Assembly (NCBI RefSeq): GCF_037042905.1 | Contig: NC_087251.1 | Location: 41,666,001-41,730,000, forward strand | DNA length: 64,000 nucleotides | Direction: 5' to 3' | DNA from: Lytechinus pictus | Taxonomy: Eukaryota | Shown: positions 20,020 through 45,075 of the stretch, piece by piece | How positions within the stretch are numbered: the first letter of the stretch is position 1 | How the letters are laid out: every line of letters begins with the position of its first letter | Translations under genes and position numbers: made by a program | Notes under the pieces: generated by a model | The model's input: the letters and a program-made list of their open reading frames with translations, nothing else | Told to the model about the DNA's origin: nothing | The model's database searches: none

Positions 20020-23000
20020 GTAAGGCAGTGGCGTTTTCATGTTCGCACGCCATAAAAGCTCTCATTTGTATCATGGTGAAGATCTTCTTTTTCCTCTGGG
20101 TTGATCTGCCTCCTTCAAGATTGAATATTATTGCAGATCCCTCAAAAGGAATAATTTTCAAGCTATTTGTTCCATATTCTGACATATGGTTTCACTAGCC
20201 TTTGTCTAAGTAATATTATGTTAAAATTATGGAAAGCCAAACAATATCAGCCAAACTTGCCTATTTTTCATAATCGCATTCCAATTGCTTTTTCTTGTTT
20301 GCCCGCCATAAGTTATTTTTTGTATCATGATTAATAAGCTGCTTGGCCATATCATCAAATCCGTTTTTACTCACACGTGTCGAAGTATTATATTGAATAT
20401 GAAAAGCCTAAAAATGTCAGCCAAACTTGTCAACCTTTTAGTGTTTTAAACGCATTCAAACGCCATCGTAAGACGGGGGCGTTAATGTGTTTGCCCGCGA
20501 TAAAAGTTTTATTTTTGTACCACGTTGAAAGTACCTTAAAAGTCATATACAGCTGTTTGAATCACGTTCTAAAATCTGGTTTAATTTGCATGTGTCGAAG
20601 TATACGTTAACGTTATTAAAAGTAAAATAATGTCGGTCAAACTTGTTGCCTTTTATATTTCTTACATTTACGAATATCTTTCCCCATGATTTAAGTATGA
20701 AGAAAACTATTGTAGTTTGAGGTTGAGTGCTACATGTAATTGTGATAATTTGAGCGTCTATACGGCAAGTGCTTTGTGGCACATTTTGACATCCCATAGC
20801 TAAACCAATTTCTGAACCATGTGCCGAACTATAGCTGTGTGATTGTATAAAAGGAGACAGTCGACACAATTTATATGGGAACTTCTGATTCTAACATTTG
20901 GAATGTACATGTAATAATTATCATCATTATGCAACATAATAGCACACAATGTTTCCGAGCGCTACATACTATTACATGACTTTGTAATAGGTGTTAGGTG
21001 TGTAGACCTTTCCAGTGACGTAATATATATTTTTGGTGTGATTGGCGGATTTTATTAACCTTGTTGATAATCTCGATGAAATTTGAGTAATGCAAAGAGA
21101 CACTGTCATATCAATCACGCTAATGTTGATTTTTTTTTAATAAAACGATAGATGGGTGATTGCACTATTCTGTCCCTTAATGATGTTGGGGCTTGTTTCC
21201 ATTGATTAATTATAGTGTTAATGGCAGTACGACGCGAAGAACTAGGGTAGCTATATGGTTAATTTTCCTCTTTAAGATTATGGTGAATTATCTTTTTTTC
21301 CATTTGCCTCAATTTGTTATGGATTATACCAAGAAAAATCATTCTATCCATCTTAATTTTTTAAAAGGCAATATTGATTTTTTTGTTTTTACTGAAAGTC
21401 CGCATCCGGGACTTACATCCGGGTCTCACCGTCAACGAGAGGCGTGTAATAAAAGGAATGGTCAAGGTTGTTAGGAGGAAGGCAACAATGGAAACTTGAA
21501 AATAAGTTTTTACGAAACAAAGTTTAATTTTTTCAAAGTGATTTTTAGGTTTCACGAAGGGGGGATGCAAGAAAGTATTTGCATTTCATTGTTATCGTTA
21601 ATTTACATTATATCATTTTGTGACTATAGCCAAATTGTTTGTGCTTATCTAGTCCAAAATCAATTCTGAATTTGCATATTAATTGCGAGACGTATTTGAT
21701 CAAAAATTGACTTGCAGTTGATAATAAGTTCCTTAAAATACCAAATTGTCATTTTCTACCACGTCTATTAGAAAGGAAAGTATAGTATAGGTCTATATCA
21801 ATATGATATCTGGATAACAAATCGACGGTTGGATCGGCTATCAATCCTGTTACTTGGGAGGAGATTGATTTTAACTTGATGGATACAAATCTATTCAGTT
21901 CTATTGTAATTTAGATTAATGATTATAGCGATAGTATTATGTTGAACATTTTTAATGCACCGGCGTTGTTACAGCGTGTTCGCTTACGATAATAAGTAAT
22001 GGGTCTGAAATACGAGGGAGAATATTTCTAGACCCGCACTGCATTTCCCGGTTTTTTATCAGACTTGCCAAATAGAACCAATCAGCTAGTTGATCAATGG
22101 GGAATTTCTGTGACAGATTTTCAGATTTTATCTGACTCCTAAGCAATTATCATTAAAAGAGGTGATACCACCATTCATGTACATAATTTCTACACACTGC
22201 AGCACCGCCAAATCATAACAGTGCCAATAAAATACGGAAGCTTTTGCGGCGGGGTTCTTTGTATCTATTCACAACTTCAAAGATACCATAAATCATTCTG
22301 ACTATTTTTTTCAATCAAAGCCTGTCTTGGTGGAAATTTGGCACATCCGATTTCCATTCGAAGCATGTGATAAGTACATGTCCTCGGCTACATCATTATA
22401 GGTTTGGTATATCGTACGATGGCCACATGCATGAATTAAAGTTAGGGTGTTTATGGCCAAGCTTCGTCCCCATTTGCACCTCTCAAAAAAAAAAGAGGCC
22501 AATTTTCCGGTTTTCTGAAGGACCATTCTATGGAGCACAAACCAGTAAGTTTGTCTTAGCCATGCAGCTCCATTGAAGATGGATATCTGATAGGCCTGTA
22601 CCCTATCGGCACTCGTTCGGTCTCTCTTAGAACACCCCGTCCGCTGTCTTTCTCTCTCTCTCACACCCACAATGGAACGGGGCTAAAGGTGTCCCCTTTT
22701 AGGATACCGCCGCCCACAAACTCCCAATTCATTTCATTATTGAATGTTTCATTTTATGATAGCCAACTATTAAATCGACGCTTGTGTTTTCTTTCTTTCA
22801 TTCCTTGACGGAGCAATTTCTTTTTTTTTCTTGGGGGGGGGGGTGATATGATCACGCGTGGCTATTGTAAGATTGACTATGATCCCTGAGGTTTATAGTA
22901 CCAGTGTATAAGTAAACTATACACCGATGCGAGCCCGGTATTACCCATGTCGCTGTGACATTGAACTTGCACCCCTTACATCGGCGACTAACCCTCCGTG

Positions 23001-23556
23001 CTTTGTATGTATCGCAGGATCCACTTACCTCTCTTTCCAAAGCCCTCTTTTGTCTGGCTTCTCCTCCAATTTTTGGTCTAATTATCTAATTACAATTGAA
23101 CGTTGAGCTGCACCTAAACTAATGTGATCATCCGAACAATTAGGGTTTTGGAAAAATAAATTTCATCTACAAGCTTTTATTGTAATTGAATTCATGCATG
23201 GTAAAAGTGACTGGTCGTTGCTATCACAATTATGAACAATACGGAAGTTAATCTTGTAGCCACTTAACATCATTATTACGATTCACTGGAAAGTAATAAA
23301 AAAAAAAACTTTAAAAATTTGTTTTCTTGTGATTTTCACTGAATTTGGGTATTCTCTGGGATACAAAATGGTGATTTTATCTTGTTTATCGCATATTCTG
23401 AGTGATATATGATTAGAACACTATTCAGAGTAAAATGTAATATTAAAAATAATCATCAGATGTAAGTAACTTAGAACTGGGTTAATGAGTACAACACAAT
23501 GAAATGAATGGGAATGGTGAATCTTGATTGAAATCTTATATGACGTCAGTTTCTTA

Positions 23557-23711
23557 CAGGGGTGTGAGAGTTCAGATTTTTATCTGATTTCAGATTCAGC
23601 CTATTTTTGGCTTTCCTCTGTACAAAAAGTATGGGAGCTCTTTCTATTTCAGACTTTTTCAACACTTCAGCTTTTTTCAGATCTTTTTATTTGTGATCAC
23701 TCACACCCCTG
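23557..23711. mobile_element. 155-bp hAT-like MITE
   Basis: TIR CAGGGGTGTGAG / CTCACACCCCTG; perfect 8-bp TSD GTTTCTTA at 23549-23556 and 23712-23719. Confidence 0.85.
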
Positions 23712-23720
23712 GTTTCTTAA

Positions 23721-24002
<282 letters not shown>

Positions 24003-24084
24003 TGAAGCGTTATAGAACACTTCCCTGCTCAGACACTCTCTCAACCACCTTATCACACACAATCATCATCCACCCCCTCATTTA

Positions 24085-24291
24085 CACAGCAAAAACGTTG
24101 TTTAAACGTTTATACAACAGTGTTTACTATAAGGTAGTTGTTTAACAATCTATAATTTATTGAAAACAAAATATTGAAAACCAAACTTTGTTGTCTAAGA
24201 TTTAAAACGCTTGTTTAATCCGCTTAAACAACTTCTGTAAGGTTTATCTGGTAAACAACGTTGTATAAAAATTAAACAGCCTTTTTCTGTA
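24085..24291. mobile_element. Short CACTA/EnSpm-like MITE
   Basis: CACAGCAAAAAC... / ...CTTTTTCTGTA ends, TA on both flanks, internal TTGTTTAAAC/TAAACAAC repeats. Confidence 0.5.
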
Positions 24292-24910
24292 TATATCTAC
24301 GTTTGATTGTCGATAAGACAGTGGCTTCCTGGTTTGTTCTGATATAAACGTAATTCGCAATCAAATATTAATAATTATTATCATTATTATTCATTTGACC
24401 AAACCATAAATAACGTGAATTCGGAAATTTGTAGAGCTCCAGAGATGATACTGAGAGAAAAAAAACTTGATGTCTTTACACGATTCGAACTGCATGCATA
24501 GGGAAGACCTAAAAAACAACCAATAGCTGACAGTGATATAAAAAAAAGGTTTGTTACTCATGAGTTCTAAAAGTGGATAGGTGGTTTCAAGAGCCAAAGA
24601 TTTGGAGACTATGACTTATACATATAGATATAGGTGCTCATGTAATCCCTACCCAAAAATCATCGTGCTTGCTGTGATATCTATATCATATATATAGAAA
24701 CAATCCTTTCAATGCCAACATATATTTCAGGACTATTCACTCATACATTCAGAAACATATCTCTAGTCTGGTACAATAGTTGATATCAAATCTGTTCTTT
24801 TGAGGGTAGTCATTTTATTAGCCCAAACCTGAAATTCAGTGAGTGTTGTCTCCAAAAAGTCGGTTTTTATTTTGTTTTAAAATAGAATAAGATGATAATT
24901 AGAAAGTTAA

Positions 24911-25483
24911 AGGGATGGTCCAGGCTGGAGATATATATATCTCAATAAATAGAGTAAAATGCTGATAATTTTGATCAAAGTCGGATAACAAATAACAAAG
25001 TTATTGAATTTTAAAGATTTCCACTATTCCAGTGAAATAGTTCTAAGCATGTCTTTGTGAATATTCATTAGGTGGGCTGATGTTGTCATATCCCCACTTG
25101 TTCTTTTGCATTTCATTATATGAAATTAGGATTATTCATTTTTTTTTCTACCAAGAACTAAAACAATTGGATTGACAACTGATTAAGTGCATTAGTTATT
25201 TATTGCTATAACTTATTTACTTATCAACACATGTATAAAATATGATGATGATTTTATGTAATAACATAAGAAAAAGGAAAGTGGGGATGTGACATCATCA
25301 GCCGCCTAATGAATATTCATGACGATGTGCATAATAACTGTTTTTTTTACAAAATATTGATAAAACTTAAAATTTAATGACATCGTTATTTGTAATCGGA
25401 TTTTGATGAAATTTTCAGCATTTTGCTCTGTGAATTTTACTCTATTTATTTAGATATAAATATTTTCAGCCCGGACCATCCCT
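24911..25483. mobile_element. TTAA-targeting palindromic MITE (Kolobok-like)
   Basis: TTAA-AGGGATGGTCCAGGCTG ... CAGCCCGGACCATCCCT-TTGA; long imperfect inverted arms. Internal motifs are shared with 57133-57736. Confidence 0.8.
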
Positions 25484-26406
25484 TTGATATTTCGATGTAG
25501 AAATTATAAGCTAATTTGCAGTGTAATTGGAGTACTTTTTATTATTATAAACCAGAAATGGTCCCTTCATACGACGCATGTGTGCTTAAGGGGTTTAATG
25601 ACCGCATGATCAATGATGAATTGTTATCTCTATGAGATATGAAACAATAGCCGTATTCCATTAACTCTTCACTCTTAAAACAATTTAGCGAAAATAGCTA
25701 TATTATAACCAAAAATGAATAAATCCAGCTCACTTTAACGTCTTCTCGCATACCACCACTACCCATGAATCTATATTCAAAGGTTCAATTTGTGTAAAGT
25801 ATTCTAATTTTCAATGAAAACTTTGTTTATAATCCTGCATGGAAATAACATGTAATGGAGACCGTTCCTATAATAGTCGAGAACATATAAAATCCCTCAG
25901 GATTTTCAACATAACGCACAATCCAAATACCGAAACAGTAACAATGTTTTCTATCTGGATGGGTCAATTAGGGACCTCTTTGAATGCTTTACCATTCATT
26001 CTTCATGACAGAGTAGTAACCATCAATTACAAGTGACAATATCAAAAGAAATCAAGGGTGAAATTAAACAGTCCTGCATATCATTATAAAGAAAAACATG
26101 ACTGGGATACTTATTCTGAATTGTACCTCTATATTATAAAGTATCTTTATGCGGCGTGTCTGGATTGCATATTACCGAAAACTATTAGTCCTTGCAGTAT
26201 TGACATTCAACAAAAAAATTGACATTTGTGGTCGAGTGTGACTTGTTTCTTGAACCCAGCCTCTTTTCATCCATCCTACTCGCGGAACATATCAAAGCAA
26301 AATTGTAAGATTGCTTTTCATACAAAAAACACGCGCAGTCCCGGCATTTGTTTTGATATGCAGCATTAGAAGTAGTGAATAATCGTTAATACCTCGTATG
26401 CCTTTG

Positions 26407-26566
26407 TAGTAGAGCGGCTAAGCACCAAAATCGTTCACTTTTTGAAGAAAGCATGAAATTTTGCACATGGTATCTATGATACATGAGGATTGTAAAAAAA
26501 AATGGATCAAAAAAAAAAGCGCCCTCTGGGGGCCGCCATTTTGAATTCCAATATGGCCGCCAAAAT
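26407..26566 (+). repeat. Left TIR of the Academ element
   Basis: Reverse complement of 37103-37272 apart from scattered substitutions and one 10-nt indel. Confidence 0.92.
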
Positions 26567-27496
26567 CATAATACTTTTGGCCATATCTCCTGTTCTATTG
26601 CACCTAGGACTGAGATTCAAACGTCTTTACCCATGTTTTCAGTGTCTAGGAACATGATGGCAGTGTTAAAATCTATGTCAGAGGTCCGCCATATTGAATT
26701 CCAAGATGGCCGACAAAATAAAATTACTTTTGCGCTCGTTTTGTGCAGGTTTTTTTTTTTTTTGCTATTTCACCTTGGAGTTAAATCTAAACGACCATTC
26801 CTGTGTTTTTTTGTCCAGAAAGTTATTACTTATTATCATAATCTATATCAGAAGTCTGCAAAATTGAAATTAAGAAATAACACCCTCTGGGGCCGCCATT
26901 TTGAATTCAAATATGGCTGCAGAAATCAACATACCCTCTGTCCATATTTAGGAGTTCAAGTGTTTTCGATGTCTAAAAAAACATTGCCAATGTCAGAACT
27001 TGCATCTGCGGTATTTGATTTCAAGATGGCCGCCTTGCTATTACACAATATATGTGACAATATACGATATGCCAATGATCATGATACCTTTGAACATATT
27101 TCAAATGAGCTCATTTCACCATATAGCCACAATATAGTCTTTTTGCAAACCTGTTAATACCTATATTTGCACGAAGACAAGCACACAGTTCAAACTTATA
27201 TATCCATTTTGGTGATTTGAAAAATTTTGGTTGTGTCAAAATCAGAGGATTCTCAGATGGCCACCATGTAGTCCGCGCTAGTGCAACCATTAGGCATTGA
27301 CATACCCAAAATAAGAGTGTTAGACAGTTGGATTCCCAGGTAAGGATGTTGGCTAACCTTGGAGTGTCTTGCAGAGGATCCAATAATCAGCGAACAATTA
27401 ACTGCACTGTTGATGAGATGTTTGTCGAGATTTTTGTGGTATAGATGAAAAATAAGGGATAAGGATGTCCTGTCCACATTTATCTATTCTGATCTC

Positions 27497-30400
27497 CTAC
27501 TTATAACATACCCCTCCACATTTGCAAAGTGCAGTACATTCCAGCTTTGTCTTGAAGCACTTGCAGTTTCCCTTGCAAGATTTGATGCAGTTACAGGAAA
27601 TTAATTCAAGACAAGCTGCTTCGGCGATGGGCAAGGTGGACCACTTAGGAACAAAACCATCTGATTCGGTCGATTCCCACCCCCATTCAGTGACATCAGG
27701 AATTTGAGGTTGTATTTCAAGTGATTGTCCCCACACATGGCCTGACTGGTAAGCTGATCGCTTGATGTGTTGTTCTAAGACAGCTCTTGTGGGAGGGATG
27801 TTCTCGATGTTTCTTTTCATTTTTGCGAAAAGTTCCATTCTGGCTTCATTGACACGAGTCTCATCACTGGTCCGGCAGTACATCAGGACAACGAATCGTT
27901 CAAGTTCTAGAACAACTTCATCTGGTAGTTGTGCTGTACACGGCCGTGACAGTGCAACAAACGTGTTGGTGATATCTGGCCATGCAAGCAAAGTTTTCCA
28001 TGCAGATTTCTTCCCGTGGTTGGCGAAGTAGGATGTTACATCACATCCAGTGAATGCGTGAAAGAAAAGCAATCCTTTGGCCATCTCTGGGGATATTGCA
28101 TGGGCAATCTCATGGATTGGAATGTACCTGAAATCCTTGCCAGTTCCAAAAGCTATCCAGAGTTGCTCGATGTCTGGCAAGTCCTGGAAATGGGCAAGAG
28201 CGAGCACAACAACATCAGTATCAACAGTTCGTATCATTGCTCTCTTGAACCCGCAGTTCATAGCATCTTTGACATGAAGAAGGATACGCGTATCTGCTTC
28301 TTCATGCGAGCATGGTTGAAGTCCATCTGTGGTGTAATCCTCTCTAGAGGTGACAACAGAGTCCAGTAGGGTGGAAATGATGACCTTGTCACCTGTGTCC
28401 TTGGAAACACATTGTTGTCCTAGGAATTGGAAGAGTTCATCCTTATTGTTATCATTCCGCAAGAAGTTTTTCCAGTTCCCTGGAAGCTTCACATTACCAG
28501 ACACCCTCTTCCTTGTGCCTGTACCTCTGTTTGCTCTTGTTGAAAGCTTTAAACTGTTCTTGAGATACACGTCCCAAACAAGATCAACCCGCTTGACCTT
28601 TCCAAGTTCAAACAAGATGTGCGGGATGAATACTTCCTGTGCATATTCAGCAAAGGTTTTTGATTCCTTAACTGGAATCAGATGCACAAGCGCCGCACCA
28701 TCAAGGATTGTCACATCTGTAGATGGAGTGTTTGTGACAGCTGACGGAGTATTGAGGAGAGTCTCTAGCAATCTAACCAGATCTGATTTGGTTCCTTGTT
28801 TAAGTGTTCCAGACGAAGAAAGTGATGGGGGATATTTTTGGTTTTCATGCTTGAAGAACTCTTTGATGTCACCTTCTCTTGTCTGACTGGCAATGTATAG
28901 TCGTGAGAACAATGCGCAGTCGCTCTTCAGATCTATTATTGTCTGCTTTTCCTTGGATGGACCCACATGCTTTCGATTGCGGAAAAGTGGAAGTGAATTT
29001 CGTTTGATGGGTGCACTGATGGGTGTTTCGTTTTTCAAGAGGCGTTCCTCGATGAAGGTTTCATACTTCTTCTCTCCCAGGGTGTGAACTTGCTCCATAC
29101 TCTCCACAACTTTCTGCGGCATGACTTCTTGTGAATCTATTGTTACCAATTCCTTTGAACGATCCATGAATGGATTCCCCAACTCATCCATTACAGCAAC
29201 AAGGGATCGCACATCATCAGCAAAGGATTTTTGCGCCGATGGACTCTGTTCATGATGCTTTGGATTAGTATCCACAGGTGACTTGTCAGCACTGCTCTCA
29301 TACTCTTCAATGACCATGGCTAGATGCGGCCCTGCCACCATCCATCGTCGTAGGGCACCTGGATCTTCTGTCAGACCGATGGCTCCTCCGTTACCCTTGA
29401 CTTGAGCATTCACCTGCTCATGCGCGTGATCCAAACCAATTGCAGAGTATAGATTCCCAGTTTTGTTTGATGTGAATGCACCACGCATGAAGTGTTCATG
29501 TACATCTGGGCACTGCTTGGCAAGTCTTGCCATGTCCTTAATGTGTACAGGGATCCAACGGGCATAGTGGATATGGTCTAGCGCAAAGAACCATGGAGCT
29601 AGTTGAGACAATGTCTGCACGTACAACTCAAAATTTGATGTCCGAATCGATCGCACAAATGCCAACAAAGTCAGTTCTAGATCAAGCACTGTGCTCCAAA
29701 ATCGAAACATAGGGTAGAACTTGCTTTGCTGCTCACACCATTCTGTGAAGCTCTCCTCGGCAACAGGATACTGATGGATGGCTGATTCTTTTTCCTTCCT
29801 GAAAGATTGCCTTTGGAGAATGTACAGTGAAGAAGCAGTAATTTGATGGGCTCTCCTTGTCCGTGCTACATGTGATGCATGAATGAAACTATCCGCTGTC
29901 CCTTGTGTAGCAACTCCTGCTTGGGCGATAGCATTACTCCAACCAGTCATATCCAGCAAATCACCAAGCATTTTCAAGACAGCCATTTCGATATGAAGAG
30001 GGCCTAACATCATCACATACTTGTCTTCACCATAGCGCTCTGGGAATCGCCACTGGATCTGTTTCCCAAGGGCATACAAAGGTTGGTCCATCGTCAATAC
30101 TGGTGTTTGTCCTGGGTTTAACAAGTGTGTTGCTTGTTGGTTTGTATACATGCAATGTATTATTGTTGCAAATGAGTGTGATACTTCACGAAATAATGGC
30201 ATCAGTGCAATTGTAGTCGGCAGCTTACATGTATGTTGCATCTGCATATTTGCATGGTATGCAGCCCATGACACAAAATCACCAACCGAAAGGTCACCTT
30301 CTTCCATCAAAGATAACTGCTTCTCAAGCCATTTTTTCTCATTAATGCGGTCTTCATCAAACTTGTCCCTATCTGGTCGCATTGGTCCGTACGTCACTGG

Positions 30401-31472
30401 TGCTTTGTATTCCTTCGGCATTGATGGTGCAGGCAAGATGTTTGTGTATGCCAGAGGAAGAGGATGGATTCGCTTGCCTGTCTCCATGTCAACGAGACCT
30501 ATCGGGTCAGCATCTGTTCCTTGATTGTTCTCAGTGGGGTGCTGACACAAGGAATGGGCAGTTCCATGAAAAGAGCCAACTGCTGTCGTTGCGCTGGGAT
30601 TATGATCAATGTTGTCAACCTGTCCTGTCGTGAAAAGATCTTTCTTCAACTGAGGCGGGCAGACTACTCCATTCTCCTCAAAGCGATTGATGATGCCATT
30701 TGCGATAGATGATGATATTTTGAGAACCCGATCATATGATATTGCCAATCCATGCTTGTGGAGGCTGTCAATCAATTCACGATTTCGTGTCTGCGCATGA
30801 ACTTTCAGGCCTATGTAAGTCGGTACAGGGACCTCTCTGTCAGCGTTATGTCGAACTGCATCTTTCTTCACACGATTGCCCTGTATGCTATTGAATATTA
30901 TGAGTTCACTAATGGTTCGAGCTGCTCGTGTCGACGAACCATCTTTTCGCGTCTGCGACTTGATACTCGGACCATCAAGGATCATATTGACCAGTGCCAG
31001 CAGTCTGCTAGGAACTGTGTTTTCAGCTGAATCATTTATCAAGGATCCATTGAATTTTCTGCCTTGGGAGAAAAGTTGCTTCCTGATAATTAAAGCTGCA
31101 TTTGCCAGTTGTAGCGCTTCAGAATCATCATCATCAAAGCATGTCATTTGGATGGCATCTCCGATCGCAGTGTCGTATGTCAGGAGAACATCTCTTCCTT
31201 GCCTCACAGCTTTCAGATATGGACAATGCAATAGGAGCCGCTCTTTAAGACGGGTTGAATTGACCTTTATCTCTGTATTGTCCGGACTCAGTTCCACCAG
31301 GCGCTCTGTGTACACAGAGACAAGGTCTACAAGACGGAAGACAGGAACACTAGGCCCAACCATCCTCCTTTCATCAATGTAAGAGATCAGCTCCGCAAGT
31401 GCGATACTTTTATGGGACGAGTCGTGACTGTCAGAAGAGCCTTGAAGTCTTGTGTTTCTCACCCGTTTATAC
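27497..31472 (-). CDS. Academ transposase coding exon 2: DDE-type core, XPG/FEN1-like nuclease, CXC/Cys8 finger
   Basis: Open for 1324 codons. Core motifs GQVDNIDH, LTMDQPLY, LGPLHIEM, DHAHEQ; nuclease motifs LDG, VWDVY, HEEADTR, DTDV, FTGCDVTSYFANHGKKSAW; C-terminal CNCIKSCKGNCKCFKTKLECTALCKC. CTCTCTACAG acceptor ends at 31473. Confidence 0.88.
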
Positions 31473-31838
31473 CTGTAGAGAGAATGTGAAACGTAAATTA
31501 ATGGGAAGTTTGAAGTCCAAAACATTTGTAAAATATCTGTTCAGAATTTAAATATTCTTTTGAATTTCATAAAATTTTATTTATTTTCAATTATATTTTG
31601 TATCAAGATCAGTTTAGAATGTTTCATTTATATTAAATCATAAATATAACACAGACATTCAAAAGCAAACACACAATTTTACATGCATTTATTTATCGAT
31701 GCCTAAGCACCAAAAGGAATTTTGCAATTTTGTGCTGGGAGGGTACATACTTTTATATATTCCTCTGAAAAAAAAGCAAATTTTGATATCATATTCTAAT
31801 ATCACCACCACACAGATCTTTGATACGATAACGCAATT

Positions 31839-32638
31839 CGTCGATGGGCTGATAAAACCTCGTATCTCAAAAAAGCAAACTTTTCAGGAGAGCGAAAAAA
31901 CTTTCTTATTTTAAGAAATTATGTGAATATTCTATGTTATTTGAACTGAATACTATGTTTGATAATTGAATTAATATGAGATGGTTGGAACGTGCAATAT
32001 ATAATTGTGAAGGGGATATAATGAGTTACGAGGTTTTGGCACAAGAAAAAAAATCATAAAATGAGATAGGAGGTTTTTGTACAAATTATGAAATTTGATA
32101 TATTTTATAAGAATATGCAACTCATCATTCTTTGTTATGACTATAAGAAGGTAAATTACACCTTACACTTCACATTCATGAACAAAAAAGAGTAATTTTA
32201 ACCTGAAAAAGAGTGATTTCATAAAAAATTAAGATACAAGGTTTTATCAACCCAGCGTACCTAACGTTCATGGGCTGTTAAAACCTCGTATCTCAAAAAA
32301 ACCGAAATTTTTAGTAAAACGAAGAAAACAATCTTCCTTTCAAGAAACCATGTGTGTAGGCAATGTTATTTGAACCTTAGACAATGTTTGTTAATCATTT
32401 CGATTATGTGAAGTGGTTGAAATGCACTAAATATAATTTAGAAGGCGGGAAATGGAGTTACGAGGTCTGTGCACTTGGCCAAATTTGAATAAAAAGTTGA
32501 GATACAAGGTTTTTTTAAAGATATACAACTCCTGGGGTTTTCAGGAGATGAATTATACCTTAAACATCACATTTATATTTAAAAAAAAAATCATTTTCAC
32601 AAAAATTTGAGATACGAGGTTTTATCAGCCGATCGACG
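31839..32638. mobile_element. Head-to-tail dimer of a ~400-bp MITE inside the transposase intron
   Basis: Outer TIRs CGTCGAT(G/C)GGCTGATAAAACCTCGTATCTCAAA at both ends; an internal TIR-TIR junction at about 32230-32300; the two halves are alignable direct repeats. Confidence 0.75.
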
Positions 32639-33085
32639 GCATGTATCAGCATCAAACGATATAAAGCCTGGTATGAAACAAAAGATTTGAGGAAAACTTT
32701 TTACTAATTTTCTGGAAGGTTGCTATTTGACCATTAGTTATTTACAAATATGTGAGTGCAGTCTCATTTTGTTAGTAGATTTGAACATTTTGGTCTGTGA
32801 AAAAAAAAAAAAATCTGATATGCACTTTTCCTATGATCGTAAACTTTGTATTATTATATTTAACTGTTTGAAAGTTAATTTGAAATCATTATTCTTCCCA
32901 CCAAAATACTACAACCATAGAGATATAAAAACATGGCACATGATTTGTGGGCAGTGTCTACTTTTTGTCAATCTAGGCAGCTATCAACATTTAAAACTCT
33001 CCATAATCCTTTACTTATATTTCATGTTGCAATGAAACATCATCATAGGTCGCCCCTCACACCAATTTCTCATAAATCAACTCAC

Positions 33086-33732
33086 CTGTTGTATAGATCC
33101 GACAGGCAAGTCTTGTGATACTTTGCATCCAGTGCTATCATATCACCTGGGGCCAATTTAGCCAGGAGTCTTGTATCTTGAAGCTCTGTGGCATTCTTTC
33201 GAACTGTCTGGTCTATCCCAGTTGTTGTAACATCATGCAGTCCTGCAGTTCCAGCTTCTTTATCACAGAAAAAGCAAAGAGCTTGTTTCTGTCCAGTGGA
33301 ATGGTAGTCTTGAACACTAGTCCGTCTCACTTTAACTCTGCTGCTGCAGCTGATACCGTTGTCTGGTTCTAGTTCACGCTTTTCTATTTGCCGATCCAAT
33401 CTCATGTCACTGAACATATTCCGGCAAGTCTTATGCCACATTGCTTTGTTCGTTTGTAATGTCTCTTCAATGCCAGACCCATCGTCTAATTGTTCAGGAA
33501 CAACATTCAAAGGAACTTTGCCTAGTTCTTTAAATTTTAACAGATTTGTTGCGAATGACTGATAACTTGTCCCTTTAGCTTCATGATTCCCTCGCCCTCT
33601 ACCCTTCCAAGGCTGGGTAAGATATTCAGACGATTTCTCTTGACAGAGAATGCAGAGGGTCCAGTCCAATGGCGGCCGCTTTACTTCAGCCATTTCGCCA
33701 GGCTTTACTAGTCTGAACAGCTTCGACATCAT
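33086..33732 (-). CDS. Academ transposase coding exon 1 (two CxxC...HxxC putative zinc-binding units)
   Basis: ORF with LDWTLCILCQ...WHKTC and CFFCD...YHKTC. AACAG|GTGAG donor (phase 2) splices to 31472 in frame, giving ...LYN-R-YKRVRN. Confidence 0.85.
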
Positions 33733-33949
33733 GCATCACACAAGTGCTGCTGGACTGTGGGTAGCATCTGCACATCGGCACACTTGCTAACTGTTGCTAT
33801 TCTCAACCCTGATTATCTTCCTCTTGATCCTGGAAAAAAAAAAGAAGAAATGGCTTATGATAAAGCGATAAGCAATAATCATGATGAAAGACTTGTAAGA
33901 ATATAGCAAAAAGTGTTAAAAACTTCTCAATGAAGGTTTTAGCCAAATG

Positions 33950-34413
33950 CAGTGCTGCCAACACTGCGTGAGACATTTTAAATATTACTTGGCACGGTGA
34001 AACAGGCAACTAAAACAAAATTTACACAATGATTTGAATGAAAAAGATGAAGCATACTTCCAACAGCTGAATCAAATATTTTGTTCATTAGACAATGATA
34101 TCTATTGCTTAAAAAAGTATTCGTTTGAGTGTCAAAATAATTCTCTTTATTACTGGGTGTATTGGCAGGGATCTTTGTTTTATTTTGAAATAACTTATTT
34201 TTAAATAACAAAGGCATTTATTTCAGCTGCTGCAGCTTTTTGGATGGCTTATTTTTAAAGAATAAAGGCATTTGTATCAGCTAATACAGCTGGTTGGAAA
34301 GTTCTTGGCTTTATTCTATTGTTTATATTCTGTATTTATTTGCTGAAGTACTACCTTAGCAGCTAAAATATTGCCTTAAGCTTCAAATGTCTCACGCCAT
34401 GTTGACAGCCCTG
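33950..34413. mobile_element. MITE with CAG...CTG ends (hAT-like) nested in the Academ 5' region
   Basis: TIR CAGTGCTGCCAACACTGCGTGAGACATTT / AAATGTCTCACGCCATGTTGACAGCCCTG; degenerate flanking duplication CAAATG/CAAATA; absent from the paralogous site at about 35145-35165. Confidence 0.7.
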
Positions 34414-37102
34414 CAAATACGATATAATCATAGTGTAATGCACGGTGACCATCTTGTGGTGTATCATGACAGGCTGTATTTCAAAATACAAAAAAAAAGA
34501 ATACGAAAACATCTTTATGGAATGCAAATATTTGATTCATCAGCCCCCTCCCCCCAAAAAAAATCTTTAAATGTCCAGCAAACATATCATACCCCACTGT
34601 TTTCAGTTTCTTTTACACATCTTCTTTAAGAGACAATTATAATGAATGAATGCTAAACTCACCTAATTTTGTCCAACCAGAAGTCTATGCCTTTGGAAAG
34701 GAGGGTGCGTGTCTTCAGAAGAGAGGGTGATTGTCTTCTTCACTATCTGATGAACAGAAAGAGAAAAAAGAAATGTTTTCACCCTTTTCATGCTTTTCTA
34801 CATACAATGGAGACCAAAGTTAGATAATATTGTATTAAATTTTAAATTAAAATAGGATGGGGTTAGGTGTTAACAAAAGTAAACTGTCTATTTTTATTTT
34901 CAATTTTGCTAAAATTATGCATCAGATGATACAAAATATCATGAATATAATTTTGAAGTAACATAAGCAATAATTCTCAAGAGATTCATAAAATAATCAA
35001 TGCCATCTTGTTGAAATTAGAATTCTAAAATCGTATGTTCGGATACCCAACCTTTCCGGACGCTCAAAAATGCAATAATCACGGGGAAAGACTTGTAAGA
35101 ATATAGGGGGAAAAAAAGGTCAAAACTTCTCAATAAATGTTTTAGCCAAATACAACAAAATCATAGTGTGAAACACGGTGGTCATCTTGGCGTGTATCAT
35201 GACAGGCTGTATTTCACACAAGCCCTGTCACAATTACGACGAAGAATACAAAAATATCTTTATGGAATGCAATATTAGATTCATCAAACCCTCCCCCCCC
35301 CCATTTCAAGAAAATATATCATACCCAACTGTTCTTTGTTTCTCTTATGCATCTTCTTTAAGATACCATTATGATGAATGAATGCTAAACTTACCTAATT
35401 GTGTCCAACCAGAAGTCCATGTCTTTGGAAGAGAGGGTGTATGTCTTCTTCACTATCTGATGAACAGAAAGAGAGAAAAAAAAATGTTCATAAACTTCTT
35501 AAGCTTTTCTGAAATGGAGACCAAACTGGGTACCATTGCATTAAAAGAATGTGGGTTGGGTGTCCAGAGGCTTAACAAAAATAAATTGTCTAGTTTTTAT
35601 TTTCAATTTTGCCAAAATGATGCACCCGATAATAGAAAATATCATGAATATATCTCATTTTGAATAATACTAGTATTAATTCTCAAGAAATTCATAAAAT
35701 AATTAATGCCATCTTGTTGAAATTAGAATACTAAAATTGTTTGGATACCCAACCTGTCCGGACATTCAAGAACTAGGTATAGTCTACACTGTATTCTAGA
35801 AAGAGAATTGAAATTTCTATTGTTGCCAACTTGAGGAAGGAATGGCAATTGCCTCTGCTGCAACACCATTCCTGTCCTGAATGGATTAGAGTAGGTACAT
35901 TTTCTACTTTTTTATATTTATAAACAAAAAGAATGATATTCAAATACACTGTGCATTGATCTTAAATTATCTTTAATGAATTAACTCCATTGCTTTTTCA
36001 GTCAAGGTCTACAAGACTACATTATGGTCCTGATGTAGGTCTAGACTAAGTTTAGATATACATGCTTTTGATTACTTTACACCACATTTATTCTATAAAG
36101 GAGACAATAATAGTTGTATTCTAGTGAATCCTTTCTTGAATTCACAATTTCAGTGAAATCTATGATACCATATTATGCCTGGATCCTATCCTGGCTTCGG
36201 CCTAATGATCCTGAATTCGAGGCTAGGCTAGACTACCTTAGGGACTTAGGCTTAGCTAAGGCTTAGGCCTAATTGAAAGATCACAAAAATCTATGATGAC
36301 TCAACATTTTAATTCTCTTCAAAATTACCAGTGGAGACTGCATGTATACAACTTCATTTGACTGTTAAAAACTCTTCTGAATGATCATAGATCTATATTT
36401 GTAGACCTAGAGGTCTATGTAAATCTAGGCATACGTGCAAACATCACTTCTGTCAACCCGACATGATTTTGACTGGATGGGACTGGTGAACAGTACAACT
36501 ATTTAACATGAAAAATATTGGAAATATAAGCATTTATCTTGATAAAAATGTATTGTTTCATAACAACTACAGCATTGAAATATCATTTTCTACATGAGTT
36601 AATGCTAAACTTAGCAGAGACTTACCAGAGTAGACTGCCAAGAGATGTCAATAGATGAACAAAACTTTTGACCAACCAGAATGAAGCAGCTGTCCATATC
36701 TCCACAACAGAGGGCGCATGTCTTATTCACTTTTGTGATTCTGAAGAACTTGTCATTACTCTCTTTCAAGGGTTATAACTTTTTGGTAAAAAGTGTAATA
36801 ATCACCAACTTTTCACAATCTATTCAGCATACTTGAGGATATTTTTAAAAATTTATTTGATGACATTTAGTTGAATAATGATCATTTGATAGAATTTTGA
36901 ATCTCATGGTAAATCTGCAATTTTCAGAAAAATGTAAAACAAATAGGTTTTACTCCCATTATCAATAGAAACGAAAATTTTAAAAAAATCTTAATTGGTT
37001 CCATTATGCTAAGAATTTAATTTTCTTTAAATCCATACCTCATACATGTTTAAAACATGTTTTACAAGAAAGTTATAAGCTATTTTGTACGCTGGTGTTA
37101 AA

Positions 37103-37272
37103 ATTTTGGCGGCCATATTGGAATTCAAAATGGCGGCCGCCAGAGGGCGCTATTTTTTTGGATCCATTTTTTTTAATGATCCCTAATTATCATAGATACT
37201 ATGTGCAAAGTTTCACGCTTTCTTCAAAAAGTGAACGATTTGGATGTATTTTGGGTCTTAGCCGCTCCACTA
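37103..37272 (-). repeat. Right TIR of the Academ element
   Basis: Inverted copy of 26407-26566, ending CCACTA followed by the TSD TTG. Confidence 0.92.
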
Positions 37273-40200
37273 TTGTGCAAACCGTTTGACTATGTACATG
37301 CAGATTTAGTATGCTAATCCTTCGATCATTTCGTCTACTCGAGAACGCACTCCCGAGGATTACACCTACACTAACACGTAATCTACACTTTATTTTTTTT
37401 CCATGCATCTATGGCAGTAATTTGCCAGACTACTAGCCCTGGTGTGCTGCACCATGCAGACATCTCCTTACTGTGGGAAAAGGGAATTAATTCGCTACTT
37501 TCCACTAAGTGCATGGTTCACTACTATTTTTTCTCATATTTTCTGGATGAAAAAAAAAGAAAGAGAATGGAATTCTCAGGTTTCTACTTGTTCTTGCTAG
37601 ATTGTCGGTGTAACCAAGAAAAAGAGAATAGAGGAGTATTGTGAGTCGGGTGCTTGAGCCGCGGGGGATTGGAGTAGGCTCACAATAGACCAATCTTACA
37701 TTCAAACACTCAAAGACCATTGCAGTGCCTTGGGCGGCGGGATACGTGAATACTCGCTGGCTTGTCTAATTAGCCCCGCTTTCAATGTTCAGAGGTACCC
37801 CTCTACCAGCATGTCGCCCCCATTGATATACCCCTAGCACAACCCGTTACCAGTGGAATGCAAGAAACAGACAGGACTTGGGACCCACGTGTGGTTTACG
37901 GAGTCTCAAAGACCACAGGTGTACGCTACTTTGCTCCTTTTTCATTTTCGCCGAGTCTTTTGTCGGCTTCAAATGAATGAAGGTGAAAGAAAGAAGAAAA
38001 AAAGAGAGGGAGAGAGAAAAGAAAGAAATCACCATGGAAGTGCCTCGGGGTGTGAACGTGTGGTAAGAAGTGAGTTGGAGTCTATAAATGATGACTTGTT
38101 AATGTATTCTGGTAGTTAGAGTGTCAGGGTGACCCTCATGAACTTCACCACAAGTTCTTCTTTCCTTACCCTGCCATTTTTGAACACGGTAATTGACCGA
38201 AATCTGAATCCCAAGTCTCGATTAGAAACCTCGCCTGGTATTGTGAGTTGCTGACTAGCCATCCATTGTTCAACGGGCTGTTTTGTGCGACTTTCCTGCA
38301 TGTTCGTAAGAAAAGGGAAGAAAATTGTGACAGGTATCTGGAACAGCAACCCTCTGGTCCATTGAAACGTGCCCACCAAAAAAAAATGAAGGCCACTCAA
38401 ACTTGAACTACTTGCTACCATCTGAAACCTATCTTCGAAAGTCGACACGGGGTAATTTAACAAGCCTGGTTTATGAACGATGCTCTTATTTGTTAAGCAC
38501 AGAAACGTGGCCTAATTCACGGTCAATCAACTTGTAGTCATGAATCGAGTCCCAACTCCCCTGTTATTCACCAAACCCATTTTCCATTTCCCCTCGCAAA
38601 CAATTCTCATTCCATTTCGACTTCGATGTAGAGAGCGTTGTCACTCCGTTAAAAAATGCCAAAATCTCAAAACAGCACAAGTGCCACAACGTTGATTCAG
38701 TCACTGTATAATATTTTGAAGGTCGAACATTAAAACATCTTTGGTCGAGCATTTCGAAAATCGAGCATTTCAAATATTTCTTTGATTTCTTCTTTTTAAT
38801 AGTACAAAATTATTTTTTAGGATATTTCATTAAATAAGTACTAATTTCGAAAGATACTTATCTTCAAAGGGAGAGGACTTATTTTTGGAGGAGGAAGGGG
38901 GAAGGGTTCCGACCTATAAGGGTGGGGCTCATGTACTTGAAGAATCTCTGAGGTTTCTCTTTCATAATGGGATGGGGTAATACATGCGATTGTTCTCGTT
39001 TCTCTTACTCCCCCTTAATCAAATGAAACAGTTTTGTTTACGAACAAACACGCACGCTCATCCACTTTTCCCCCACTCTCACCAGCATGACCAACACTCT
39101 CTCTACAAGTTCCTTTCACAAAAGATCGCTGAAGTTGAAAGAAGATGAACAAAAACAAACTTCCATTAGAAGGCCATAGTTTTGGTGCAGTCGGTTAATA
39201 TAACCAAACGCAACAACGGATCAAAATTCAAGATGAACTTTTGGGGTTTTTGATAGAAAAGTCGACCCCCTCGGTACTTGCGTACTTGACTCTAGAAAAA
39301 AGACATAAATGAGTGACTTAAATCATGCGAACTATCTAGATACTCTCGATGGTCTATGTTTCAATCTGAACTCTCGGTGCATTTTTGTAACTGTACTGTA
39401 TATCACTGGGTTTTTACATTAAGCATGATTGCACTAAAGACTGTTAATTAGTGATGCAATTAGCAGTGTTTTCTAACCTATTATCATCATGATCATTAGA
39501 GGTGTTTGACGATCCGTCAAGTAGGAAGGAAGTGGCGTAAAAGCCCCCGTCTTCTGAACTACATAATTATTCCGTCGTAATTGTTTCATCTGCTCTCGAA
39601 TCTGCTGATGTACAATCATTACCTCATCAACATTACATGTAATTTGCTCCCGATGTATACCTGAAGAAATTGAGAAGAGAATGCAGTTCGAGCTGACATT
39701 CTTGCATCGGGGTGACGGCGAGACAGAAATTAATTATTAGATGATGAGGGGGATGCCAGGTACTTAACGCTCCATGATTAATTAAGCCGTGATTGGGTAA
39801 TTTTGATTGTCGTCGTCCGATTGAGATTAGCATACTTCAGAAGAACAAAAAGAAGACAATTGACAATTGAATAATGTCGAATGAAACTGGTGTGAATGAA
39901 TATTCTATATCGTTTCAATATTTCTGTAATATTATTTTCGCGAAGGAGTGGATTTTCGGATGCATTTCCGAAAATGGCTGCTTATCGAAATCGGTATTAC
40001 TTACACCAGACAATTCAAGATTGCTACGTTGATCTATCCAAACAAATTATGGAGATAATACTTATTAGATAGGCCTCCGGGATATACTTCATTTTCTATA
40101 TAATTATATACGCATTTTATACATCTTTGTACACTCAGATTTAATTTCAAATTCAATTTCACTAAAGAGAATTATCACAATGCAAAAAGCTATGAGAAAC

Positions 40201-41551
40201 ACCCGAAAACATTTTTATTTTATTTGAACATTCATATGGATGTTTGACGAAGACATCATTAGTGCTCGGTATAACACCTTTAAAAAAATATTTTTTACCA
40301 TTACCCGCCGTTGGTTAATCATGGTTTTTATTCGTGGCGGATTACTCATAGCGATGCGTACAAATAGCACACACATTTCTCACTCTATATGGGTGAATAT
40401 GCACCCATGGAATAACCGCAATGCTATTTAAAGTGTCCCATGCTCAAACACAAAGTACGTTCTCTTTACACAAGCCCCGCTCTCTGTGTGCTTGCGTTCA
40501 AATCAATAAAGCTATCGCTCTTACGTAACAATTTGATATGGACCGAGTAGTGCCTGTCTTTACCATTTTTCCCCATTTCTTAAGTTGCATTGACCATTAA
40601 CTTAAGAGCTCGAATAACCAGAAAGCTGACATAAAGTTTATGGGAAAAAATGTAGGCTTATATCAAGCATACATTCAGTGAGTCGATTGAAGCTCACTTT
40701 ATAAACTCATACAAGAACGCTAAGATGAAACATTTGAAAGTTAAAAATTGTAAGATTGTTAAATATCACTGTTGCTGGATATGTTGCAATGATGGTTGCT
40801 ATAAGTTCACATATCAATCAGTCTCCCTTTTTACACAGCATTTTATAACGCACATTAATTTTCATGCCCACTGCAACTGCTTGAGGTCGATATTGTACAA
40901 ATGATTTGAAACAATGTATACAGATCAATAATCATAACTTGTATCAAAGACTTAAAAGTGTATCGGGTAATCCCTCTATATCTACAGTTGAAATGGTTTA
41001 TCCTTGAAACCACTTTGCAAGACTGCAAATTGAAATAAAGTTTGGGAGGGTGACTAAAGAATAAACTGCACTCCTGCAGGATTCATTTTCGCCTAAGTTT
41101 GAGGCAAGTCCTACATGTACATGCTTTTGTGGAAAAAACAAATCAGCTTTGTTGGAATGGTTCTCCGAGTGCATTCTCATTACCGATCGATTGTTTGGAC
41201 CGGTCCGTATACAGAGACCGGTCCCATCAACTCGGCAGGAGTTCCCTGCTTGGTGGAACCTTAATGCTTACCCTGTGTACTGAGTAATTATTGACATTGA
41301 GTAGGTTGGGTTGAAGGACCTCTCGCCAAGTTGTGTACAGATTAACCCACAGCGAGTAATGAAGAATGGTCGGAATAAGGAGGGGGGGTATAACGATAAT
41401 GGACTTTCATGAGAATCATCCAAATAGCTGACCAAATGCATTATCTAACATGACAGTCTGATGAATTGAAACGTATTTCGTATATTGACGTTATATATTT
41501 TGTGAATGTTGTTTGATTAATGGTCTTTTATTTTTCATTACTTTTCTTTAG

Positions 41552-42139
41552 GTTTGGTTCAAAAACAGAAGAGCAAAATGCAGACAACAGCAACAGCAGC
41601 AACAGAACGGTCCGAACAGCAACAGCACAACGAACAAACCGCGTCCTGCAAAGAAGAAAACGCCACCGCCGACACCGCGTGAACCCGACGCGCCTACCAC
41701 CACATCGAGCGATACACCGCCTTTCAAAGCATCGCCATCCGTCTCGTCGAGCATGCCCAATAACAACAGTATTTGGAGCCCGGCATCGATAGCCCCTCAG
41801 CCCATGACAAGTGATCATTTATCAGCAAACATGAGTAATAACAGTTGTATGCAGCATTCCTACACCATGCCTAACGCGCAACCCGCTGCAGGCTACACAG
41901 CGCAGGGTTACCAGTCACCGTACTTTGGCGCCGGCCTTGACTACCTCTCTCATATGCCGCAATTCCCCGGCGCCATCAACCACCAGATGGCATCGAGTGC
42001 TATGAATAACGGGCCGATGACCACCATGGCGTCGCAGCTGCCTCCACCCCACCACGCCCATATGCCCATGGGCTCGATGTCGAGTGCAGAGTGTATCGAC
42101 GGTAAAGAACAGCCGCAATGGAAGTTCCAATCCTTGTAA
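41552..42139 (+). CDS. Otx: Otx last exon: VWFKNRRAKCRQQQ (K50), SIWSPASI motif, Otx tail DGKEQPQWKFQSL
   Basis: TTTTCTTTAG acceptor ends at 41551, phase 0 with 23948; 195 codons plus stop. K50, the WSP motif and the C-terminal WKFQxL are diagnostic for Otx. Confidence 0.98.
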   Translation, partial: VWFKNRRAKCRQQQQQQQNGPNSNSTTNKPRPAKKKTPPPTPREPDAPTTTSSDTPPFKASPSVSSSMPNNNSIWSPASIAPQPMTSDHLSANMSNNSCMQHSYTMPNAQPAAGYTAQGYQSPYFGAGLDYLSHMPQFPGAINHQMASSAMNNGPMTTMASQLPPPHHAHMPMGSMSSAECIDGKEQPQWKFQSL

Positions 42140-43911
42140 CCCAACCTGACAGAATCTCAGCACCGAGATGATCCCATTGAGTCCATCGTATCAATCGGGC
42201 GTGGTTCGGCAGCCAGGAAAATGTCTGGAAAATGTGCAAAATGACACTGATGTTCACAAAATGGCGGCTCGACTTAGCGAAATTACGACGCGCACACGAG
42301 GTTATGACAATGAAAGGACCAATGGGTATAGGAATCAGATTTGATTTATAAATGAATATTTTGAATGGAACCATCACTCAGGGAAATCTCGAGACAACAT
42401 GAGGTTTCTACCGTTTCGTAATGACTCCATTCCTGAAACGCAAGACATTGCCGTTCGGACAATCTGAAATGAATCACATCTTTGCTCTTTATAATGATTG
42501 ATAATAATCCATGAGATTTTCATGTGTTTCTCTTTTTTTCTAGCCATTTATGGTGTTATTAATCAAACTCGTTATCAGCACAATATTTATTGTTAAATGA
42601 GCTCATGCTAAAGCAAGCAAAACTTATTGCAAATCCGATGTGTTATGTTTTCATACAACTTTTAAGTTTAAGATATTTGAGGTTAAAATCCTCAATGATC
42701 GTAATGGTGGATATTTCTCTATCGAGCAAGTACATAACAAAATACCATCTTGTGAACAACTGATCAAACTGAAAAAGACTATGTTCTTATTCAACAAATT
42801 GCATCATGTGACTATTTAGTATGCCTATTATGAAAATATCGAATCAGTTTCTGCTTAATGTTATTTTAAGTTTTAGCGTGAGATCATGAAACAGATTGTG
42901 TTAGTACCTTGAATGAACGCATCTCACGTTGTCGAGTGCGTTTAATCTTAATTATTGTTGATCAAATGACCTTGTAAACAAGATGAACCACCAAAAACTT
43001 TCCCACCGAAAAAAATGTTAACAGGATTGACTGATTTATCCAACATGCAATGTAAATCTAGATGGTTTTATTTATTACAGTAGTATATGTATAGACAAGT
43101 GACAATTATGATTATCATTAACTCTGCATTACATTAGTGTGTTGCTATAAGTGAAACAAATTTCTTTCGTTTTCAATCATAGGATAATTCCTTCGAGAAT
43201 CCCAGAATTATTTGCAATCAACTCGTCTAGGTTAAGAATAATCAGCTCAAACTTATTTGTTTCTTTGTGTCTTGTATTTGATTGATTTGCTATTCTGTTA
43301 TGAACTTAATTGTTTGAATAATAAGTCGACTTTCTTTTTTTAAAACGTATTCTAAGACTAACTATCGGGCGTTTTGTACGACACATTGAAGTGTTGAACG
43401 AAGTTAACAACTATTTTATTGAGTCCAATTTTGTACCCCCTTTTCTTTGGTTTTAGTTTCCCAAGTTGGTTGGATATACAGGGTCAATGTTAATTTATGT
43501 GTTGTATAGAAAACAATGTTATAAAAGAATGTCACCTGACTGTGCTTATAAGGAACCATAATGGGAAACCTTTTGATTTTAAATTGAAAATATACTTATA
43601 AGTACCCATTGTGCGGATTTTAACTTTGATAACAGCCCCGATTCACTTTTTTTCAAGCGGGGCTTAATTTATATATCTTATATTATTGTGAAAGCAATCT
43701 CTCTAACACATCCAGTATTTAGAATTCTAATATTTATGTTTTGTAAATTATGTTTTTTTTCTTCTGATATTTATGTTGTCTTTTTTTTCTCTTCGTTTTG
43801 ACCACAAACCGCATGGTGTGTTTGAAAATGTATTGACATAATTATTTTCGTCTCGTTCCTTTTGCTTTATCTTCTCATACCTTTGCCTCAAATTCAAATA
43901 TTCTAAGTGTA

Positions 43912-44312: not shown

Positions 44313-45075
44313 TGATATGCATAAAAATCACTCCTTGTACGATCAAAATACAATGTTGAGATAGACAAATTATATCCCCGATTCTTACACAATATAATGG
44401 AGAGAGAGGAGTGTGGAGAGAGCGGGTGCGGGGGGGGGGGGGCTGGGTTTGTCAAGGAATAGCGCATCAACCAAAATTGAGATGCATCCCAAGCATTTTT
44501 TTTAAAATAAAGTCCAGCAGTTTCTTAACTTGTCAAAATTTTGATGTAGATTTCACAAAATAATTGAGGGGTATATTTTAGAATACCTTATCATTGTTCA
44601 TCATGACAGCTTGACTAACATGAGGAGGAGAACATGGGTCCTAGTTTTAACATTTTATCAATCTTGGACTTGTGTCAGTGAAATTTGAATCTTAACTCAA
44701 TGTTGTTGTCAATCGAATGACCTCCAACGGCTGATCTAATCTTTCGATTCGGGGAATCATATTAGACTTTTATGATTTATATGGTATAAATATACAAACT
44801 TAAGGCAAGTTTTCAAAAATAGATTGAATACGTTATAAAGATTTTTCCTCACATTAGTTCTTTTTTTTTTATAATGGACTTTATATAAAAAAAAAGAAGA
44901 AAATGCTTGGGGTGCATCAATTTTGATCAAACCTAGCCCCCCCCCCCCCCCCCGCTCTCTCCAGACTCCTCTCTCTCTCTCTCTCGATTGTATTGTGTAA
45001 AATCGGGGATATATATAATTTTTATATCTCAACATTGTATTTTGATCGTACAAAGAGTGATTTTATGCATATCAG
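44313..45075. mobile_element. Fold-back element with ~200-bp inverted arms
   Basis: 44313-44515 (GATATGCATAAAAATCACTC...TAAAGTCCA) is the imperfect reverse complement of about 44873-45075, including the GA and G tracts. No clear TSD. Confidence 0.7.

Follow-up and report, generated by a model that had tools for sequence, protein, structure and literature searches.

The window analyzed here is a 64,000-nucleotide stretch of the genome of the sea urchin Lytechinus pictus (contig NC_087251.1, positions 41,666,001 to 41,730,000), and it carries the homeobox of the Otx gene on its forward strand. The homeobox exon (23797–23948) and the last coding exon (41552–42139, VWFKNRRAK...) are separated by an intron of 17,603 bp (23949–41551) that splits the homeobox between ESRVQ and VWFKNRRAK. 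The encoded protein matches Lytechinus pictus Otx models at 100% in three comparable exons (98% in one exon of one model) and L. variegatus Otx at 93% in the most variable exon. Inside this intron, antisense to Otx, lies a 10,866-bp element (26407–37272, minus strand) that makes up 61.7% of the intron, which would measure 6,734 bp without it. An earlier sequence-only reading of the stretch had put the share at about 62% and the lengthening at about 11 kb, and both estimates hold, the latter for the intron. Its ends, target site duplication (TSD), reading frame, protein domains and an empty allele together indicate that the element is very probably a complete cut-and-paste transposon of the AcademX type, with an unbroken frame, that inserted recently and is still segregating.

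The element has TAG…CTA termini: TAGTAGAGCGGCTAAG opens it at 26407, and a near-complement closes it at 37272. Its terminal inverted repeats (TIRs) align over 168/178 nucleotides at 84% (with a single 10-nucleotide gap, E 6.7e-51). TTG flanks both ends, at 26404–26406 and 37273–37275; a 3-bp flank match has by itself a chance of about 1/64, and the independent empty-site contig described below has a single TTG. The two ends are built differently. In the 5' TIR, or long end (37095–37272, minus strand), a 16-bp outer block is separated from an inner block by a 19-bp spacer, while in the 3' TIR, or short end (26407–26574, plus strand), the spacer is 9 bp, a difference of 10 bp. The same 19-bp and 9-bp spacers, with the same polarity, occur in L001, a complete 6,391-bp relative (L001 positions 251–6641, both ends present) that is 77% identical in protein and 78% in DNA. 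Only 2 of the 10 extra spacer letters agree between the two elements, so the length of the spacer has been kept and its sequence has not. An 18–28-bp subterminal motif is repeated within 26525–27034, with four copies at the 3' end and one in the 5' TIR, and L001 has eight copies; these repeats are likely transposase binding sites. A search of metagenome contigs for the exact end pattern returned no match, and an Rfam scan of 23000–43000 returned none either. A 225-codon plus-strand frame at 26480–27157 was considered as a gene and set aside, as it sits in repeats and has no ATG-led support, though no search was made with it.

The transposase gene occupies the minus strand. A first coding exon of 216 codons (33732–33086, 647 nt, with a predicted acceptor at 33830) and a second of 1,324 codons plus the stop (31472–27497, 3,976 nt) join across a 1,613-nt GT..AG intron (31473–33085), in phase 2 within codon R216, to give 1,540 codons with a single terminal stop. 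Translation may begin at M2 (33729) rather than M1, because relatives open at the equivalent MSK. Protein relatives were plentiful: 323 were found among 8,000 scored candidates, and the best 120, which were listed, are mostly 1,450–1,600 residues long and 40–78% identical. The best alignment spans the exon junction in 104 of these 120, and one homologue (P0127, 68% identical over residues 2–1540) reads through the junction uninterrupted. In L001 the same codon is interrupted in the same phase by a GT..AG intron of 223 nt, although the frame of this relative is broken by a frameshift near residue 25. The intron is absent at this position from L002, which is 42% identical. Its presence in L001 and absence from L002 mark the intron as a gain in the lineage of the window element, and the gene model, as judged from these alignments, is sound.

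Other sequences are packed into the element. Upstream of the first coding exon, two tandem units of about 740 bp that are 85% alike (33850–35770, minus strand) each contain a predicted non-coding mini-exon of 60–85 nt, with acceptors at 35457 and 34747 and donors at 35394 and 34662 in a prediction from sequence only. Nested in one of these units, at 33949–34414, is an inverted-repeat element of 466 bp that has an AAAT duplication of 4 bp, and the paralogous tandem unit shows the corresponding empty site. Since the element copy in sequencing run X1 also carries this 466-bp insertion, it predates the jump into Otx. A second nested inverted-repeat element of about 0.8 kb, with 33-nt arms that are 97% complementary and no clear TSD, lies in the transposase intron (31838–32638). 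The two nested elements and the duplicated 5' region account for the length of the window element (10.9 kb), as compared with the 6.4 kb of L001.

Single-sequence and profile searches of the Protein Data Bank found no match for the window protein, and Academ transposases are without a close solved structure. We compared an AlphaFold2 model of residues 341–1540 (49 sequences, pLDDT 86, pTM 0.75) with 48,161 solved chains. The best match of the C-terminal half was EXO1 (Z 15.3, rmsd 3.6, 260 aligned residues), followed by XRN1, GEN1, XPG and FEN1 at Z 11.4–12.1 (XPG 11.6, FEN1 11.6). The model thus predicts a 5' nuclease of the EXO1/XPG/FEN1 type at 27692–28792, with carboxylates D1140, D1183, E1274, D1276, D1300, D1302 and D1360. 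The N-terminal half most resembled the P-element transposase (Z 10.3, rmsd 5.2, 369 aligned residues, 9% identity), and Hermes (Z 7.0), Tn5 and ISCth4 (5.9), RAG1 (5.8) and integrase cores also matched. This region (29300–30952) is predicted to form an RNase H-fold DDE core with a helical insertion; D502 and D678, at two strand ends, and E901, on a helix, would be its catalytic triad. All ten acids predicted to be catalytic in the two domains are kept in each of the 108 homologues aligned. A cluster of ten cysteines (residues 1503–1538, 27506–27613) closes the protein, and nine of them are conserved in at least 90% of homologues. The first coding exon is modeled as two C2-HC zinc modules. Six of its seven top structural matches are ZAD domains, all weak (Z 3.1–4.7), and the second module matches the P-element THAP domain weakly (Z 2.5), so the ZAD likeness is only a lead. 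Among the matches listed by Foldseek for the 1,200-residue model almost all were 5' nucleases and none was a transposase, and the N-terminal model had no Foldseek match under E 0.001.

AcademX elements are characterized by an XPG-type nuclease, a C-terminal Cys8 motif and TAG termini. The AcademX lineage and the Academ superfamily were reportedly described by Kapitonov and Jurka in 2010 in Repbase Reports and by Kojima in 2020 (Mob DNA 11:15). The window element fits the AcademX type in every feature examined: TIRs that start with TAG, a 3-bp TSD, an RNase H-fold DDE transposase and an XPG-type nuclease predicted in one protein of about 1,500 residues, and a C-terminal cysteine cluster. This assignment is to the type, as judged by these features. 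The sequence-only reading had thus rightly seen both termini, the perfect TTG duplication and a two-exon GT-AG frame of about 1540 codons without stop or frameshift; the protein is, by its modeled P-like core and fused nuclease, that of a transposon, and the Academ label can be refined to the nuclease-bearing AcademX type. The window element is set apart by the lineage-specific R216 intron, which L002 and most other homologues lack, and by the replacement W1377L. DUF6589, which we take to be linked to Academ, was touched by 8 of 22 scanned family proteins at E<0.1, with three above the curated cut-off, but not by the window protein. No named Academ appeared among the protein relatives and cluster look-ups, which yielded unnamed clusters only. 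One 90%-identity cluster of the family, that of P0011 (222 members, 40 of them read), contains proteins named from the fish Muraenolepis orangiensis and the crab Chionoecetes opilio, a mix that hints at transfer across phyla or at contamination. Two full-length family members, P0087 and P0107, are labeled as proteins of a bacterial metagenome-assembled genome (Sedimenticola sp.) and are probably host DNA binned with a symbiont.

Comparison with known systems places the element more closely. AcademH belongs to the same superfamily, but according to one article AcademX elements have 3–4-bp TSDs and a nuclease whereas AcademH elements have 9–10-bp TSDs and a helicase, and the enzyme is suggested to set the length (PMC10045372). 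The window element, with its 3-bp TSD and fused nuclease, has no other long frame that could encode the superfamily 2 helicase of AcademH, and neither exon has a helicase match in Pfam. Academ is listed among the DDE superfamilies without a Pfam match in two further articles (PMC9587614, PMC5751038). In the literature searched, AcademX was named only in the article on duplication length (PMC10045372), and no description of the window element was found, with most subscription papers and Repbase Reports lying outside the coverage of the search. The element resembles P elements in a predicted RNase H fold that a helical insertion divides, in the best structural match of its core, which is to P transposase, and in an end spacing of 9/19 compared with 9/21 (PMC7776569); truncation of the P protein by a retained intron may have a parallel here as well. 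P elements differ in their 8-bp TSDs (same source), THAP domain, GTP dependence and lack of a fused 5' nuclease, and the window element is P-like in outline while lying outside the P superfamily. The bipartite ends, which differ by about one helical turn, also recall RAG1/Transib, for which the structural match is weak; no heptamer/nonamer likeness was seen in the ends of the element, though no comparison was aimed at these motifs. Transib elements make 5-bp TSDs, as opposed to 3 bp here. Some Transib ends are spaced 12 and 23 (PMC8355894). EXO1, XPG, FEN1, GEN1 and XRN share with residues ~1110–1476 the predicted fold and seven invariant carboxylates; identity is 8–14%, and the window nuclease differs from these enzymes in being fused to a transposase.

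The age of the insertion can be judged from four sequencing runs. X1, X5 and X21 carry the same species label (A), and X7 is from a second organism, B, and is DNA by guess; organisms C–F, with word shares of 0.24–0.32, do not enter the comparison. In X1, a 1,490-nt contig (record 3, depth 2.46) joins 25620–26403 directly to 37273–37983 with a single TTG. Its flanks (778 and 710 letters) differ from the window by 13 substitutions and 7 gap letters, and the skipped segment does not have GT..AG ends. The 13 substitutions mark this empty-site contig as another haplotype. Near-identical copies of the element nevertheless occur in X1, whose Otx site is empty. On the pieces listed, the X1 copy differs from the window at 16 of 10,212 positions (0.16%) as compared with 32 of 2,397 (1.34%) for Otx intron pieces (Fisher p 6e-13), and the X5 copy at 28 of 6,032 (0.46%) as compared with 17 of 1,209 (1.41%; p 8e-4). 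Because the copies differ by 0.16–0.46% and the intron alleles by 1.3–1.4%, the copies are younger than the usual allelic differences at Otx. In X21, mean depth is 0.06 over 16 element bins and 0.82 over 7 unique intron bins, which fits Otx alleles that are empty in this run too. In X21, 30 reads (23 starts) cross the Otx joint in spliced form, as do contigs of X5 and X1, and the spliced reads probably stem from empty alleles. It is likely, then, that the insertion is young and segregating and is not a fixed part of Otx. This bears out the earlier suggestions that the element is young and possibly polymorphic. Autonomy, which the earlier reading also raised, is possible. The other option then offered, purifying selection at the locus, is not supported: another haplotype lacks the element here, and synonymous changes are not significantly enriched among tip differences (5 of 15, p 0.23, on the differences listed). 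Considering substitutions only, a 1,540-codon frame escapes nonsense changes with a probability of 0.81 at 0.1% divergence and 0.36 at 0.5%; the intact frame is thus expected from youth alone and needs no selection at such an age. What is new is the empty allele and the near-identical copies; the AcademX family itself is known, common and little studied.

Several observations weigh against this interpretation. Neither exon of the window protein has a Pfam match, and the structural match to P transposase is moderate (rmsd 5.2 at 9% identity). The flanks of L001 show a TA match and no 3- or 4-bp duplication. The spliced joint 33086/31472 is not among the 15 joints listed (of 168), and raw X21 RNA, of which about 6% of the run was read, has almost no reads on the element. 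The splice predicted in the sequence-only reading has the homologues, P0127 and the intron position of L001 in its favor, while the junction itself is absent from the RNA joints listed. The empty allele is known from a single contig of depth 2.46 in one run, and filled junctions were seen, among the rows listed, in the window only. Lastly, the window protein deviates at 15 alignment columns with a conservation of 85% or more. Its three nearest relatives either show the same deviation or are themselves variable at most of these columns, but two departures stand out most clearly: W1377L, at a column that is tryptophan in every one of the 108 homologues aligned, and A1447V. Both could impair the nuclease half.

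One possibility leaves the insertion history as described but holds that the copy in Otx, or the local family in its entirety, has lost some of its activity, mobility having been supplied by another master copy. The frame would be open from youth in that case also, and besides the two departures at conserved columns, four of the six coding changes private to the window are non-synonymous and an 8-kb X1 contig retains the transposase intron. On the other hand, all ten acids predicted for catalysis are in place, as is the cysteine cluster, and the four non-synonymous private changes all lie in variable columns. Furthermore, no difference at codon 1377 is found among the 13 of 14 X1 differences that are listed, and the leucine is probably common to the copies that multiplied recently. 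We consider a loss of activity possible but somewhat unlikely.

An alternative history, which we put forward only tentatively and at a similarly low likelihood, is that the family arrived recently from another urchin lineage, through horizontal transfer or hybrid introgression, and brought the nested intron element with it as a passenger. In X7, the element differs from the window at 72 of 4,543 positions (1.58%), non-coding sequence included, whereas the one host intron piece listed differs at 24 of 531 (4.5%; p 6e-5); most host bins there have a depth below 1, and most of the host intron barely aligns at 90%. The nested intron element has summed depths of 27,473 and 14,326 in X7, where 86 contigs have loose ends at 31838, but no more than 20 in X1, X5 and X21, whereas the repeat at 24909–25485, taken as a control, is deep in all four runs. 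A protein model of L. variegatus, on a different contig from L. variegatus Otx, represents a decayed copy that is 95% identical over 290 residues. Against a transfer, the host control is a single piece, summed depth over contigs does not measure copy number, and the comparison sets RNA beside DNA; host exons, moreover, can be lost to filtering. Organism B may also be a close sister with patchy coverage.

An assembly artefact behind the filled allele, or a precise excision or misjoin behind the empty contig, is very improbable. The absence of the filled junction from the rows listed for the runs and the low depth of the empty contig would be in keeping with such an error, but a faulty assembly would not leave a perfect 3-bp duplication just where the TIRs end, and the flanks of the empty contig come from another haplotype. 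Precise excision is disfavored too, since transposons that move by cut and paste commonly leave footprints when they excise. Domestication as a nested gene, or fixation by selection for an effect on Otx, is exceedingly improbable and is rejected because another haplotype lacks the element at this site and both TIRs, like the TSD, are intact. In its favor, the frame is open and there is apparently RNA of the family, and of the 20 coding differences listed 17 lie among same-species copies, 7 of them synonymous versus 22% expected (p 0.066). At the tips, however, the excess is not significant, and the L. variegatus relative is a decayed copy away from Otx.

A young, complete AcademX-type insertion thus remains the preferred reading, and the runs also suggest how the family is transcribed. 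X1 and X5 contain spliced Otx and so both hold RNA, although their contigs show neither strand nor transcript ends. In these two runs element coverage stops at 26764 and 26780, adjoining an A14 run on the transposase strand (26750–26763). No X1 contig covers 26404–26763, where a bin depth of 1.73 is fully accounted for by two records, and the longest listed 5' pieces of the element end at 36932 and 36837. We infer a transposase-strand transcript with its start some hundreds of bases in from the 5' end and its priming site at the A run. A 7,998-nt X1 contig carries the transposase intron unspliced, and such RNA would stop at codon 216. A stop directly after the donor is no sign of design, since any phase-2 intron starting with GTRA yields one. 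In P elements a retained intron makes a repressor, and a 207-residue KP protein also represses (PMC7776569). By analogy, intron retention could play a similar part here, a hypothesis suggested by the likeness of the two systems.

If the parts are taken together, a mechanism can be proposed. A transposase multimer, bound to the inner TIR block as well as to the subterminal repeats, would bring a long end together with a short one, much as P transposase does with its 9- and 21-bp ends; such a pairing of unlike ends is the reading we prefer, based on two elements and the structural match to P transposase. D502, D678 and E901 would cleave the ends and transfer them to the target DNA. The fused EXO1/FEN-type nuclease would then likely trim single-stranded 5' flaps or overhangs, either on the donor or on the product of strand transfer, and this trimming would give the short 3-bp duplication where helicase-bearing AcademH makes 9–10 bp. 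A promoter within the 5' end would drive transcription of the family, and transposase may be kept low in most tissues because the 1.6-kb intron, with its stop at codon 216, is retained. The Otx copy would be tolerated because it is antisense and intronic. In its broadest form, AcademX would be a P-like machine obliged to pair 19-bp-spacer with 9-bp-spacer ends, whose fused nuclease trims intermediates; the family would be jumping now in a laboratory sea urchin, held down by an intron retention that leaves a 216-residue fragment with two zinc modules, and would have recently crossed urchin species, and the Otx insertion would be a natural allele with a 2.6-fold longer intron. As a whole this picture is doubtful, and we think it quite unlikely that every part of it is right.

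A young transposon in an intron is ordinary biology, and the family is very common. The value of this copy lies in its being complete, with a known empty allele, in a tractable urchin, which makes it a substrate for testing the link between nuclease and TSD length, the use of unlike ends and the splicing gate. It is also a natural allele of Otx, one whose intron is longer by 10.9 kb, and could be used to test the effects of intron length and of an antisense unit on a timed developmental regulator. Extra poly(A) signals in the Otx sense were considered and discarded, with AATAAA at 0.46 per kb in the element versus 0.74 in the rest of the intron.

The insertion is also the likely cause of a split in the annotation of Otx. 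NCBI holds a whole L. pictus model (XP_054758253.1) and two halves (XP_063958784.1 and XP_063957581.1) that are broken at the host intron. Among these proteins (P0337, P0338, P0340), one half continues into the intron past ESRVQ and the other half begins from a spurious exon at 41157–41255; RNA shows a single intron. Two strongylocentrotid urchins have a four-exon Otx gene, in an article whose main text, as far as available, does not mention transposons (PMC12784935). Elsewhere in the host intron, some 760 bp away from the end of the transposon that would hold its promoter, a block at 38032–38569 keeps 95% identity in organism B, in which the bulk of the intron fails to align; the block is possibly a conserved Otx enhancer. 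The control repeat at 24909–25485, very deep in all four runs, is an abundant inverted-repeat element of about 580 bp with TTAA on its left and TTGA on its right, which we take to be Kolobok- or piggyBac-like.

Downstream of Otx, further inverted-repeat elements with arms of 34–85 nt occur at 44324–47799 and 57153–57717. A broken non-LTR retrotransposon occupies 52310–54755, with a reverse transcriptase fragment at 53308–54405 (Pfam RVT_1, E 2.8e-09) and neighboring frames. About nine dispersed copies of a palindromic motif like GCTCGCGCTTCGCGCTCGC are spread 80–950 bp apart over 58772–61218, and a tandem array with a unit of about 21 bp begins at 63273 and runs off the end of the window at 64000.

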